The notes under the pieces are model-generated. The model ran no database searches and was not told the DNA's origin. It saw nothing but the letters and a program-made list of their open reading frames with translations. The translations under genes and the position numbers were made by a program. From assembly GCA_000004985.1 (NCBI GenBank), contig GG738917.1: a stretch of DNA of 64,000 nt; one strand, given 5' to 3'. Numbering within the stretch: position 1 is the stretch's first letter; each line of letters begins with the position of its first letter. The stretch comes from Naegleria gruberi (Eukaryota). This document shows, one piece after another, positions 11,142 to 49,741 of the stretch.

Positions 11142-11215
11142 GCCGTCATAGCTCAGTTGGATAGAGCACAGGACTTCTAATCCTGGGGTCGTGGGTTCGA
11201 GCCCCATTGTCGGTA
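11142..11215 (+). tRNA. tRNA-Arg (anticodon TCT)
   Basis: Cloverleaf parsed by hand. D-arm is GCTCAGTTGGATAGAGC, anticodon arm is CAGGA-CTTCTAA-TCCTG (anticodon TCT), and the T-arm GTGGGTTCGAGCCCCAT contains the B box. The acceptor stem has one U-U mismatch. It closely resembles eukaryotic tRNA-Arg(UCU). Confidence 0.8.
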
Positions 11216-40346: not shown

Positions 40347-41097
40347 TTATTGAAAAACGAGAGCCAACAAGGCAAGCAAACATCCAACTAAAACAATGAA
40401 TGAATTTTCAGATGTTCTTAAGGCAGCACCAGTTTTGCCAGTATTGGTATTGGTATTTCCCTTACCAACACTTGCAGCAGCAACAACTTTACCTGCAACA
40501 TTGATATCAACACATCCATAATATGGAGCTTCGTTTGCAGGAATCCACATCCATTGCAAAGTACAATTACTGCAATATCTATCTGGAATGGTAACATTTA
40601 CAACAGTATCACCAGCAGCACTCTTGATATTGTTGGCAAGAATGGTGGAAGCACCTCCAGCATAATCAAGAATTGAAATTCTCATAACACCACCTGTGTT
40701 GTTTTTTCATATAAATTGAATTTAATTTAATTTACTTTCCAATAACAAAACATACCGTGATTGGCTTGAATATTCCATGTGATTGGGACTACTTGATTAG
40801 CCTTGTAATTTTGTGTTGCCTTGGTCTTGGCAACGCTTCCACATGGTGATGTTTTTTGTGTGAGAGCCTGATGTCAAACAAGTGACGACGGTTGGCATGT
40901 GAAAATGGGTGAGATAGTGAAAGAGGAGTAGTAACAAAAAAAACGTGTTGATAAATAATATTAACATTGTTAATACCTACATCTGATCTACCAAAAGTTC
41001 TTGGCTTTGGGTTAATGAATTGACCGTGACCATTTGTGAATTGGAAAATGGTAAATAATAAAGTGAAGGCCAAGATGGCAAGGACAGTTGTACGCAT
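40347..41097 (-). CDS. small secreted, probably GPI-anchored protein with LPMO-like N-terminus (His1-Gly-x-Phe-x-x-Pro-x-x-Arg), 3 exons (40981..41097, 40756..40867, 40347..40693)
   Basis: A signal peptide (MRTTVLAILAFTLLFTIFQFTNG) is followed directly by HGQFINPKPRTFGR. The spliced product (GTAGGT and GTATGT donors, CAG acceptors, phases consistent) has a second His (NIQANHGG), paired Cys residues, and a C-terminal Ser/Gly/Thr-rich stretch plus hydrophobic tail (GPI signal-like). The unspliced read-through frame is AT-rich junk. Confidence 0.45.
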
Positions 41098-41297: not shown

Positions 41298-42308
41298 TTA
41301 CTCTCTAGGATGTCTGTGTTGTTTGGATTGTTTGAGAGATTTGAATTTCCTGTCAAATTCGTCCTTTTCCATTTTTCTTTTCACACACCTTTGGATGGAT
41401 TGTTTCAGGTGTTGAGCTTTCCTTCTGATTCGTTCTGGTGTGATTAATCTCTGAATTTTCACACCCTTAACAAACTTTTTTTTACAAATTACAACTTCTC
41501 GTTTTACAACATATTTTCTAACATCGTCCGATTTTGAAAGATTGAATAATTTACGAATTTTGGAAGCTCTCTTTGGTCCCAGAGTTTTGGGATGAATTGA
41601 ATCTGTGAGTCCAGGAATTTCTATTAAGAAATTAATTTATGAAACTCTAGTTTCAAAAACTTACCAAGAGCACCCTTTCGAATAATTATTGCAGAGACAG
41701 CTCTCAAATTTCTATCAAGAATGCATCCTTTTAGTTTAATTCTTCTCCTTTCTCCTTTTCTCTTTGCTTGCCATCCTCTATATCCAAACTCTCCTGGTCT
41801 CCTCAATATACAAGAAGTTCCGTATTTTATCAATCCAGGAGTGTAACAAGTTCCCAAATGGTCTGAAGCTCCTCTATCCAATATTTCATGATTCAAACAC
41901 CTCGTATTGAAAACCTACCTAATTTTAAATATATAATCTCTAAAATCATTTCCAATACAACTTCCATCAATTTCATCACCCAATTTCCTTCCTCTAAATG
42001 CTTCAGCACCTGAACCATAAATTTCAAATAATTTAGTTCGTCCAGTTTCTCTACAAGCCAATTGAAACTAACATTCAATTTTTCATCATTTTAATTAATA
42101 TCATATTTGATCATCATACCTTCAATTGATGATAATAATTGTGTTTCAAAGTAAAAACACCCTCCGAAAATCCCCACTGTCTAACATCAACATCCTGTCT
42201 CATGTGTTCAAAGCCACTTCCGACAAGCAAATCCAATCTTTTCAGAGGATTTGATTGGGGAGGATATTTGGCTGGAGTGAGATTGTTTGGGCGAAGCATT
42301 TTTTTCAA
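41298..42308 (-). CDS. ribosomal protein eS6 (RPS6)-like gene, multi-exon; 3' exons 41298..41620 and about 41665..41880 well supported, 5' exons uncertain
   Basis: The last exon encodes [42 protein letters not shown]...[16 protein letters not shown], nearly identical in pattern to eukaryotic eS6. The preceding exon encodes ...[41 protein letters not shown] (cf. [35 protein letters not shown]). A 44-nt intron (GTAAGT ... AATAG) lies between them. Sequence 5' of this is only weakly eS6-like. Confidence 0.55.
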
Positions 42309-42430
42309 TTATTTTGATAATTATCAACTTTCAGCCCCAGATCATTGCATCTTTCTTTTGGAAAGGTTTCGTTTTTACAAATTGTGCTAAAGGAATCAAA
42401 CCTCCTTATCAGACTAGAAACAATAAAAAA

Positions 42431-43554
42431 ATGGACAACTTAATTGATACCACATGCAATTTCAAAGCACAACACAAAGCACCTCTCAAATTTCCAGCAC
42501 ACATCCACAAGGGAGATAATTTGTTGGTTGCCATCGGAATTAAATCGAGTGCAAATTATTCAAGATCAAGAGTTGGTGATTTTTGGTATTTTTACGAATC
42601 AGTGTATGATGGCGTGAAATGTCGATTTGAAATTCAATCAAATATGCCATTGGATAGTTTTGCACCACCAGCTTTGAATATTCACAAAATTGTGTTGACT
42701 GTTTATCAAATGAATGAAATGGAGGAAAGGGAGCTATTACTTGAAACTAAATCTGAAAAAGAAGTATACTATTTTGGTGGTGTTCACAACCTGAAGAATT
42801 CAATAGAGAAAAAATTGCAAAAATCAATCGTATTATTGGAATTGACAAACTGTCATACAGTGCTAGAGCTTCTTGGGATATTTTAATGAACTATATGGAA
42901 GTTTACGGGTATTTTAGTTATTACCGTGTTGTACCTGGATCAAGGAATGAAAAAGTGTATTGTGAAATGTTGCTTCATGACAGTACACTGATTGACAGTA
43001 ATCATAGTGAAAACGCAACTTACAAAAAAAGATTTCATAAACTTGATGGAGTGGCAGCTAATAAGTCATGGGTTAATATAGATATCTCTAAATATCCGTA
43101 TATTGAAATGTTGAATTACAATGGAGACGAATTGAGATATTCTGAAAGTTTGGAGCAGACAAACAATTTAGGGATAATCACTATAACTTACAATTCGGAA
43201 ATTATTTATAGAGCTAGTTATCCTTATGAAAAGGTAGTTAGAATAGGAAATTCATATACTCCAAATTACCAAAGTCCAATTTACAAGAATGGTTTGATCT
43301 GTGAAATTGATGAGAGAAAACCAACACATTCAGTTTTCAAATTTGTTGAGAAAATGCTCCAAATCACTTTGAAACAAACAAGGAATTTTGAAATTTCAGA
43401 AATGGAACAAGAATGGTGTTCTTTATGTAACAGTCAATTTAAAAATCTTGTAATGATTTTCAATTTTAGAAATTACAAACATTTCAATCATTTGAATTTG
43501 AATAATGCACTGAGAAATTCATCAACTTTCTCAGATATTGTATTTTACAATTAG
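42431..43554 (+). CDS. hypothetical protein(s): two consecutive ORFs (42431..42886 and 42886..43554) in different frames overlapping by 1 nt
   Basis: Both have coding-like composition and no recognisable domains. The arrangement (TAATG) suggests a frameshift, a pseudogene, or two tightly packed genes. The track start of the first ORF is TTG; the first ATG is at 42431. Confidence 0.25.
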
Positions 43555-48253: not shown

Positions 48254-48935
48254 TTTTTGCAGTATAAATTAACTATCTATTAAAATGGAAGGTGTGCAAC
48301 AATTGATGATTATTATGTTTGGACGTGAACATTTTCATAAGATGGAAAGAAAAACATCTTCCTGATTATTACATTGTTTAGAAGTGATTACAGTTGTTTT
48401 TTCTATTATTGATAAAAATTGAAATTTAAGGTACCAATCTGCATGTTCACAAATCCCCCATTCACGAACCATGGCTGGTTAGGAATGCAGCAATCATCTA
48501 TGAACGAGGAAACCTACAACGAAGCATGTTTCCAGTTCTATGTCATGCTCAAGATATGTGACTACAGAGTCTTCATCTTGGTTAACCTCAAAGGTCAGAT
48601 TGACTCAAAAAAGTCGAGTTTATGTATTCCTACAGAAAAGATCCTGTAGAAGTACAGTCAATGGTTTTACAAATACTGCATCCTCAGTGATGTTTTGGTT
48701 GGGAAAGTGAGAAATGTTGTGAGGAGAAGTTATGGTTAAAATATTGGGAATTATTAGAATTTTTGGATCAAGAAAATATTTGAATTGAAGAAAGTACAAA
48801 AACCGAGTAATTAGAGAAACATGTTGTACACCAACAAGAACTATTTCATCAATATTGATTGAGATGGTGTTTGTTTTTGAAATATTTCAGGATGGACTAT
48901 TCAATGTCAAAAATAAGATTTCAAATTACATGTGA

Positions 48936-49016
48936 AGCAGGGGTTCCCGAGTGGTCAAAGGGGGTAGACTCAAGTTCTACTGCGCAAGCTTCGTGGGTTC
49001 AAATCCCACCTTCTGC
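48936..49016 (+). tRNA. tRNA-Leu (anticodon CAA), class II with long variable arm
   Basis: Sequence is GCAGGGGTTCCCGAGTGGTCAAAGGGGGTAGACTCAAGTTCTAC-[variable arm]-GTGGGTTCAAATCCCACCTTCTGCA. Anticodon stem is GTAGA/TCTAC, loop is CTCAAGT (anticodon CAA), and there is a B box GGTTCAAATCC. It closely matches eukaryotic tRNA-Leu(CAA). Confidence 0.8.
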
Positions 49017-49670
49017 AGATTTTGCTTCTTTCTCCCTTAGTCTTTTTGAATAGACCACTATTTGCAAATATTTATTGTTAGTCCGACGTCTAGTTTCTAT
49101 GGTAAAAACTTTGTTCAATTTCATAAAGACTCTATAAAGATAATCAATAAAGATAACACTGACCTCAAATATTCCAGCCTAAACAATTTGAAAAATACCA
49201 TGCACAAAAAAGAAGAAAGACTACAAATTTGGCAAAGTGAAGGAAAAAGACTACAGCACCACAGGTTCCCAAGTTGTCTCCAACCTCAGTACTGATGTGG
49301 CTCGACGATAAATCGGACGGGATGAGGTGCATTCATCGTGATATGGCCGTAGCCATTCAATTGTTGAAAATTTGAAAAATAAATCAAATTCAAGCATGTT
49401 CTTGATAACAGGAAATATTGATATTTGTTGAGATTTATCATTTCACCACTAACAAATCAAATTGGAAAATTTAATTGTACTAATTTTTTATGGAATATTT
49501 TAAACTAGCTCATAAAAAAATGATGTTAAAACTGAGGCTTCTAAAAACGGATGTACAAATAGTTTTTAAAAAATAAAAACACAATTACCAAGATAGATAT
49601 CCAAACCATCACTACAAGAAAATAAATTGTGTGAAAATAAATGATCTTAGAAAAAATCATAAAATGTTAT

Positions 49671-49741
49671 CTCGAGTGCCGGGAATTGAACCCGGGTCGC
49701 CAGAGTGACAGTCTGGAATGCTACCACTATACCACACCCGA
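49671..49741 (-). tRNA. tRNA-Asp (anticodon GTC)
   Basis: The reverse complement reads TCGGGTGTGGTATAGTGGTAGCATTCCAGACTGTCACTCTGGCGACCCGGGTTCAATTCCCGGCACTCGAG. Anticodon loop is CTGTCAC (GTC), and the B box is GGTTCAATTCC. The acceptor stem is fully paired (one G-U). It closely matches eukaryotic tRNA-Asp(GUC). Confidence 0.8.

Follow-up and report, generated by a model that had tools for sequence, protein, structure and literature searches.

A 64,000-nucleotide (nt) stretch of contig GG738917.1 of the amoeba Naegleria gruberi (assembly GCA_000004985.1), hereafter the window, carries on its minus strand a gene (41298-42299) whose product resembles the 40S ribosomal protein eS6 (RPS6). Our analysis suggests that this locus is probably functional and belongs to a family of divergent eS6 paralogs specific to Naegleria, i.e. 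that it encodes a lineage-specific eS6 variant, and it is best described as representing a strongly diverged, lineage-specific ribosomal-protein paralog family with a novel N-terminal exon. An earlier note, made from the letters of the window, had placed an eS6-like gene at 41298-42308, which is borne out by a coding sequence on the minus strand between 41298 and ~42300, and had offered a fast-evolving lineage, a pseudogene, a neofunctionalised paralog, and a chimeric gene as explanations for its aberrant 5' part. The paralog option is the one that we favor, considering that a canonical eS6 gene lies elsewhere in the N. gruberi genome and that the locus falls in a constrained clade of divergent paralogs. 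A literature search found no paper dealing with this gene, with its family, or with paralogs of ribosomal proteins in Naegleria. In public databases the gene model figures only as an uncharacterised "predicted protein," and its orthologues are automatically named "40S ribosomal protein S6," one of them in N terminally truncated form.

The eS6-like gene has an ordinary four-exon structure

The coding sequence (CDS) lies on the minus strand of the AT-rich window (34% G+C) and is made of four exons separated by three GT..AG introns of 52, 45, and 44 nt, as follows.

Exon 1: 42120..42299, minus strand; 60 codons, ATG at 42299; family-specific N-terminal extension, the last two codons of which (L59, K60) align with canonical Met1-Lys2
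Intron 1: 42068..42119, minus strand; 52 nt, GTATGA..TTAG, phase 0; at the extension/eS6 junction, with an in-frame TAG at its end
Exon 2: 41919..42067, minus strand; 149 nt; eS6 N-domain residues FQLACRETG...DYIFKI(R); Ribosomal_S6e match with an E value of 2.2e-11
Intron 2: 41874..41918, minus strand; 45 nt, GTAGGT..ATAG, phase 2
Exon 3: 41665..41873, minus strand; 209 nt; remaining eS6 N-domain, ending with RKGAL; Ribosomal_S6e match with an E value of 9.9e-13
Intron 3: 41621..41664, minus strand; 44 nt, GTAAGT..ATAG, phase 1
Exon 4: 41298..41620, minus strand; 323 nt including the stop codon (41298-41300); near-canonical C-terminal half, (E)IPGLTD... followed by a long helix

The spliced CDS of 861 nt encodes 286 amino acids (aa) that are 100% identical, over the full length, to the GenBank entry "predicted protein" of Naegleria gruberi (XP_002670307.1 / EFC37563.1 / NAEGRDRAFT_74747 / UniProt D2W064, our P0001). 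The start codon is the ATG at 42299, which is preceded by an in-frame stop two codons 5' of it; position 42308 is merely the mechanical TTG start of the open reading frame (ORF). To connect the 5' exons, the earlier note had called for either an 18-nt intron or an internal insertion. Neither is required, as the ordinary GT..AG introns 42119..42068, 41918..41874, and 41664..41621 suffice. The supposed need came from an error of register, because the GND of exon 2 had been aligned to the canonical GGNDKQG motif, the actual counterpart of which is GASDHLG at the start of exon 3, past the 45-nt intron 2, the one that the earlier reader had been unable to place. The flagged splice anomaly is ordinary gene structure, and the deposited model is sound.

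The product contains a complete, strongly diverged eS6 body

As assessed with Pfam, the product matches Ribosomal_S6e (PF01092) with 113.4 bits (cutoff 26; E value 7.6e-33) over profile positions 2-125 of 125, at aa 60-186, and the complete eS6 body spans aa 59-283. Because exon 2 (profile positions 4-51) and exon 3 (positions 53-117) each match Ribosomal_S6e on their own, the N-terminal 50 residues of eS6, suspected of being absent, are present and clearly recognisable although divergent. It also follows that no canonical N-terminal exon was missed, since these residues already reside in exon 2. The description of the N-terminal part as poorly conserved holds in that the N-domain displays only 31-33% identity to canonical Naegleria eS6; the view that it is only faintly recognisable is wrong, given the E value of exon 2 alone. 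The C-terminal half is strongly eS6-like, as had been proposed, with 68-70% identity to canonical Naegleria eS6 over aa 187-260. The product is highly basic, with an isoelectric point (pI) of 10.4 and 23% Lys plus Arg.

Structural comparison gave a concordant picture. Sixty-two distinct solved eS6 chains are colinear with the product, from chain residue 1-2 (model aa 59/60) to ~228. An AlphaFold model, built from a 56-sequence alignment, has a mean predicted local distance difference test (pLDDT) score of 82, with values >90 from residue 60 to ~280, including a predicted C-terminal helix (aa 241-282, pLDDT >90). When this model was compared with the PDB using Foldseek, the top 50 matches were all eS6 chains, from ribosomes and small-subunit processomes, with E values of 1e-19 to 1e-21 over ~227 columns. 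An eS6 fold is thus predicted for the eS6 body with high confidence. Both features expected of a member of the eS6 superfamily are therefore seen, i.e. a profile match above the gathering score over the whole domain and a predicted eS6 fold.

To score conservation, we used 81 reference columns that are conserved at ≥90% among 46 canonical eukaryotic eS6 sequences. The product retains 56 of these 81 columns, with very different proportions in its two parts (27/49 in the N-domain and 29/32 in the C-terminal half). Hence, 22 of the 25 changed columns are in the N-domain, and they include the GGxDKxGFPMKQGVL loop. By comparison, the canonical eS6 proteins of Naegleria, a red alga, and a nematode retain 81/81. 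Three hallmarks of a canonical housekeeping eS6 are not found at the locus, namely the near-invariant residues, a Met-Lys start without extension, and codon bias together with slow evolution (see below).

The search for a second, canonical RPS6 that the earlier note had suggested was successful. Canonical N. gruberi eS6 (P0122, XP_002676748.1, NAEGRDRAFT_68050) is encoded elsewhere in the genome and belongs to the 90% cluster of N. lovaniensis eS6 (P0011), together with N. fowleri P0121 and the product of a Logan contig (P0123). Among the canonical proteins of N. gruberi, N. fowleri, and N. lovaniensis, N-domain identity amounts to 92-100%, as against 54% to human eS6. The idea that the gene under study is the sole eS6 of a simply fast-evolving organism, for which nothing speaks beyond the divergence itself, is refuted by these canonical genes, which are present in all three species, 92-100% conserved between them, and keep all 81 columns; we give it virtually no credence. 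As a side observation, the deposited canonical N. gruberi model (219 aa) does not contain the first 11 residues, MKLKISDPSTG, which are present in P0123, a near-identical product of a transcript-sized 923-nt Logan contig, and in the N. fowleri and N. lovaniensis orthologues.

A family-specific extension is fused to the eS6 body

The first 58 aa of the product, preceding L59-K60, form an extension that corresponds to most of exon 1. The earlier statement that this exon (MLRPNN...HQLK) is not eS6-like is correct, and its comparison with Pfam produced no family even at E ≤10. Between aa 19 and 40, the extension displays the motif P-L-K-R-L-D-x3-G-x-G-F-E-H-M-R-x-D-x-D-V. Seven paralogs, including the studied gene, could be aligned here and define a family-level motif, [PN]-x-[KR]-[KRN]-[LI]-D-x3-[GES]-x-G-x-[EDN]-[HYF]-x-x-x-[DV]-x-[DN]-[VLI], other versions of which read PLRKLDLAFGRGFDHMREDPDV, AKKIDEWCGSGYEYMGQDPDL, YKNLDLCFGRGWEHARQDTDV, PLRNLDLLFGRGFDHMREVHDI, and PFKKLDTQYSRGTNYWSQDANV. 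All members with a readable 5' end have an extension of 57-63 aa that contains the shared motif.

Several features indicate that extension and eS6 body are made as one protein. The canonical start Met is substituted in every family member (by L, R, H, R, N, or D). Moreover, exon 2 contains no Met and is directly preceded by the in-frame TAG at the end of intron 1, so that the eS6 body can be made only as a fusion with exon 1, i.e. the extension is obligatory. The junction is marked by a phase-0 intron, found after codon 60 in the studied gene, after codon 58 in the paralog loci L001, L002, and L003, and also in L004, L006, and L009, the position being between the codons that align to canonical Lys2 and residue 3. 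The environmental contig L005 has lost the junction intron, and its extension and body form a single uninterrupted ORF of 825 nt, which excludes a mis-joined gene model.

These findings bear on the possibility of a gene-model artefact or chimera, in which exon 1 would come from another gene or from non-coding DNA and be joined to a truncated eS6 copy. This might have been suspected from an exon 1 without similarity to eS6 or any Pfam family, and from the failure of the earlier reader to find a consistent model. It is nevertheless rejected as extremely improbable. Homologues of exon 1 precede the eS6 body in all the paralogs, with the same junction, and the body has neither a start Met of its own nor an open frame upstream of exon 2. 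Furthermore, when 1.84 billion representative proteins were searched with a profile of the extension, the three hits obtained all belonged to the family, and the chimera reading is left unsupported because no donor gene or family is detectable.

Another explanation centers on the first 15-20 residues, which are basic and rich in Ser, Thr, and Pro and could represent a targeting peptide (e.g. mitochondrial or nucleolar), making the protein a compartment- or organelle-targeted eS6 derivative. The extreme N termini are indeed basic and nearly devoid of acidic residues in all the paralogs, as illustrated by MLFKVTGKHKKRGRPSTHNAKK and MVRLEKGPYKVRAPMSRP. However, the best-conserved part of the extension is the acidic/aromatic LDLxxGxGFEHMRxDxDV, and cleavable presequences do not normally show such motif conservation. 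In addition, no eS6 homologue is known from mitoribosomes. We therefore regard targeting as very unlikely.

The NCBI model of one N. fowleri family member, paralog A (FDP41_010695, P0007, 245 aa; L004 9875-10054), begins at an internal Met. The complete first exon starts at L004 9875, and its product, MVRLEKGPYKVRAPMSRPLRNLDLLFGRGFDHMREVHDIHR..., contains the family motif.

The divergent paralogs form a clade found in Naegleria

The closest relatives of the product are divergent paralogs rather than canonical eS6. There are two such members in each of the three species, i.e. in N. gruberi (the studied gene and P0009), N. lovaniensis (P0003 and P0004), and N. fowleri (P0007/P0125 and P0127), as well as several on environmental contigs (P0005/P0126, P0010, P0129, P0130, and P0131). 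In searches with a family profile, members score 314-469 bits and canonical eS6 at most 245 bits. When this profile was run against the annotated proteomes of Willaertia magna and Acrasis kona, only canonical eS6 and no family member was recovered. Fused public models inflate scores in homology searches of this kind. Two of them, P0002 (Gonioctena, 460 aa) and P0008 (Ancylostoma, 414 aa), are tandem double eS6 and account for higher-scoring non-Naegleria hits, and a third, the fused-looking Acrasis kona P0015, has a 175-aa N-terminal part with a PF09451 match.

We built a neighbor-joining tree from 209 gap-free columns, with eight full-length divergent sequences and with a red alga, a nematode, and a beetle as non-heterolobosean sequences (100 bootstrap replicates, bipartition-based supports). 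The divergent paralogs are monophyletic (100/100), and the heterolobosean sequences, canonical and divergent together, are split from the red alga, nematode, and beetle with a support of 99/100. Within the divergent clade, two N. lovaniensis/N. fowleri orthologue pairs, A and B, each have a support of 100/100, as does clade C, composed of N. gruberi P0009 and an environmental contig. The studied gene is placed near A, B, and the environmental D, with weak support (55-78). The basal position of the divergent clade in this tree is probably a long-branch effect.

Diagnostic residues are informative about origin. The derived states G112A and R191K occur in all members, and P233V, G86, and F139 also distinguish the family from canonical eS6. 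On the other hand, T192, G232, W144, and R245 are common only to the family and heterolobosean canonical eS6, and I244 is shared only with Naegleria canonical eS6, which points to duplication of a resident gene. Most parsimoniously, the canonical gene would have been duplicated in the stem lineage of Naegleria to give rise to the family, a housekeeping copy being kept in each genome.

Gene structure and gene order were examined for further resolution within the family. The closest available relative of the studied gene is the metagenomic contig L009 (587 nt), which shares introns 1 and 2, the second of them at L009 482-523. The position of intron 2 is vacant in clades A, B, C, and D and in the canonical genes, and that of intron 3 contains no intron in the other paralogs with a solved structure or in L006 and L010, where the ORFs run on uninterrupted. 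The junction intron is the only one in clades A, B, and C, D is intronless, and the canonical Naegleria eS6 genes examined are intronless as well. It thus looks as though introns 2 and 3 were gained in the sub-lineage of the studied gene, although multiple losses elsewhere could also account for the pattern. Upon comparison by tblastn of all window ORF fragments of ≥50 aa with the 10-kb flanks of L001-L008, only the eS6-like gene itself matched, so gene order cannot assign the studied copy to clade A or B.

In N. fowleri, the last ~160 nt of the CDS of paralog A (L004) share 88% identity with the corresponding part of paralog B from that species (L003) but only 67% with N. lovaniensis A. The pattern is reversed in the rest of the paralog A body, which is 83% identical to N. 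lovaniensis A and 64% to N. fowleri B. The contrast is indicative of gene conversion between these unlinked N. fowleri paralogs in the C-terminal tail.

The paralogs evolve under purifying selection and have weak codon bias

We estimated pairwise ratios of nonsynonymous (dN) to synonymous (dS) substitution rates between N. lovaniensis and N. fowleri with the NG86 and YN00 methods, and between the studied gene and L009 with NG86 and LWL85. The paralog family evolves under purifying selection. For pairs A and B, dN/dS is 0.26 and 0.24, respectively, by NG86, and 0.15 and 0.12 by YN00. In both pairs all regions are below 1, with 0.32-0.50 in the extension, 0.20-0.26 in the N-domain, and 0.16-0.22 in the C-terminal part. 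Compared with L009, with which it shares 53% identity over 126 codons, the studied gene has a dN/dS of ~0.46 at a dS of ~0.95. Nonsynonymous divergence is nevertheless high, as dN amounts to 0.17-0.18 in the paralog pairs versus 0.014 in the canonical pair (~12-fold).

Codon usage also sets the two classes apart. The effective number of codons (ENC) is 32-33 and the G+C content at third codon positions (GC3) is 0.43-0.44 in canonical genes, whereas the paralogs have an ENC of 41-49 and a GC3 of 0.25-0.37, and the studied gene an ENC of 40.6 and a GC3 of 0.25. This weak codon bias suggests that the paralogs may be expressed at a much lower level than the canonical genes. All the paralogs are strongly basic (pI 10.35-10.95).

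Could the locus be a decaying duplicate whose frame is still open by chance? The N-domain is highly divergent for a ribosomal protein, literature searches with the gene's identifiers gave no expression evidence, and there is no synteny with the paralog loci of other species, all of which might be expected of a pseudogene. Against this, the 861-nt ORF is intact over four exons, its three canonical introns are spliceable, the extension motif and junction intron are conserved between species, dN/dS is below 1 both in the sister clades and versus L009, and 29 of the 32 conserved C-terminal columns are kept. We consequently reject the pseudogene explanation as highly improbable.

Possible roles of the eS6 variant

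The explanation that we favor, a functional eS6 variant, can be extended to a mechanism. Most likely, the paralog would still bind 18S rRNA at the eS6 site, in view of its basic character (pI ~10.4), its conserved C-terminal motifs, and its long helix. Judging from its weak codon bias, the protein may be a minor or conditional variant that stands in for eS6, at low abundance or at particular stages, in some 40S or pre-40S particles. The eS6 of other eukaryotes is assembled at an early point, in the nucleolus, and takes part with eL24 and uL3 in the intersubunit bridge eB13 (PMC9932298). On this basis, the remodelled N-domain might alter the surface of eS6 at eB13, and the extension might present a conserved motif for docking at the subunit foot. 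An altered N-domain together with a protruding motif could then change subunit joining or recruit a lineage-specific factor. The most far-reaching version of this scenario, which we put forward tentatively, is that a genus-wide, multi-copy, eS6-derived family may take the place of eS6 in 40S subunits of a separate class, with a retuned eB13 and a factor recruited by the motif, yielding stage-specific (cyst, flagellate, or stress) specialised ribosomes.

The main rival, which we judge rather unlikely, is extraribosomal neofunctionalisation. The paralogs would have kept the eS6 fold and the basic C-terminal half while acting outside the 40S subunit, by binding another RNA or ribonucleoprotein, or as an assembly or regulatory factor, with the extension mediating a new partnership. 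The loss of 22 of the 49 near-invariant N-domain residues, including the GFPMKQGV loop, fits such a role, as do the small number of family-specific conserved states (G112A, R191K, P233V, G86, F139, and C225), the obligatory novel motif in the extension, and a codon bias weaker than that of bulk ribosomal proteins. Conversely, the C-terminal half has remained near-canonical (29/32) over a long divergence, for which the simplest cause is binding to the same rRNA site, and the predicted fold is wholly eS6-like.

Several observations weigh against a functional eS6 variant that acts in the ribosome. The pattern of divergence does not separate a ribosomal from an extraribosomal role. Forty-six columns that are fixed in canonical eS6 vary within the paralog family, mostly in the N-domain and including the GGxDKxGFPMKQGVL loop, and this variability could equally mean that the ribosomal role of the N-domain has been lost. 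The extension is predicted at low confidence by AlphaFold (pLDDT 39-47). The constraint on the studied gene itself is less well measured than that on clades A and B, with dS near saturation over the 126 codons compared. Finally, a full-text literature search for the gene's identifiers and through the supplements of Naegleria papers returned no evidence of expression, and the exact product of the gene has no Logan run-assembly members, whereas the canonical gene does, an absence that could reflect very low expression of the studied gene.

Surroundings of the gene in the window

No further eS6-like copy was found upon searching the 64-kb window. Upstream of the gene, an intergenic region of ~131 nt (42300..42430) separates it from a possible divergent ORF on the plus strand (first ATG at 42431) and is presumed to be a promoter region shared by the two; on the side of the eS6-like gene, it contains two tiny upstream ATG-stop ORFs. 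The plus-strand ORFs opposite to the gene extend over 42431-43554 (MDNLIDTTCNFKAQHK..., then MNYMEVYGYF...). The downstream neighbor (40347-41097, minus strand) has the look of a small gene with several exons that would encode a secreted or membrane-anchored protein; the product starts like a signal peptide (MRTTVLAILAFTLLFTIFQFTNG|HGQFINP...), contains a block with Cys (CSNCTLQWMWIPANEAPYYGCVDINV), and ends in a hydrophobic C terminus. A Pfam scan of the ORF fragments of both flanking genes, including two from the downstream gene, gave no matches.

Elsewhere in the window, a tight cluster of non-coding RNA genes lies at 48433-49741, and one tRNA gene is found apart from it.

U3 small nucleolar RNA: 48433-48661, minus strand; 76 bits
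tRNA-Leu(CAA): 48937-49017, plus strand
5S rRNA: 49248-49354, minus strand; 61 bits
tRNA-Asp(GTC): 49671-49741, minus strand
tRNA-Arg(TCT), apart from the cluster: 11142-11215

Discussion

Few proteins are known to evolve as slowly as the core ribosomal proteins. The N. gruberi paralog can be compared with canonical cytosolic eS6 (N. gruberi XP_002676748.1 and the human and yeast 40S structures). The two are alike in domain order, body length, colinearity, predicted fold with a long C-terminal helix, near-identical motifs in the C-terminal half, a profile match over the whole N-domain, and a highly basic composition. The paralog differs by its obligatory 58-aa extension, the disappearance of the canonical start Met, changes in 25 of 81 near-invariant columns, a ~12-fold higher dN, weak codon bias, and three introns, when the canonical Naegleria genes examined have none.

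More than one eS6 gene per genome is also found in yeast and Arabidopsis, where the eS6A/eS6B duplicates hardly differ in sequence and can substitute for each other. The Naegleria paralogs depart from this situation, with only 31-42% N-domain identity to the canonical copy and a different N terminus. Another parallel is offered by Drosophila RpL22-like and RpS5b and by mammalian RPL3L, RPL10L, and RPL22L1, which are divergent paralogs proposed to make specialised ribosomes. In these, a lower-expressed, faster-evolving second copy under purifying selection exists beside a housekeeping copy, and the same appears to apply in Naegleria, where expression was judged by codon bias. The Naegleria family is nonetheless more extreme, with about one-third N-domain identity, at least two members per genome, an age that predates the split between N. 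gruberi and N. fowleri, and a new, conserved N-terminal exon in all members.

The reality and extent of paralog-defined specialised ribosomes are debated, and most work on them has concerned animals, yeast, and plants. The amoeba described here, a free-living excavate, retains at least two strongly diverged copies of eS6 per genome, and has done so at least since N. gruberi split from the N. fowleri/N. lovaniensis lineage. If the paralogs enter ribosomes, they would provide a clean natural experiment, with a unique peptide tag for proteomics in a protein that forms an intersubunit bridge in other eukaryotes. If they stay outside ribosomes, the fold of a core ribosomal protein would have been recruited to a new job. 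In either case, the family is a testable candidate for ribosome heterogeneity or ribosomal-protein exaptation in a deep-branching eukaryote.

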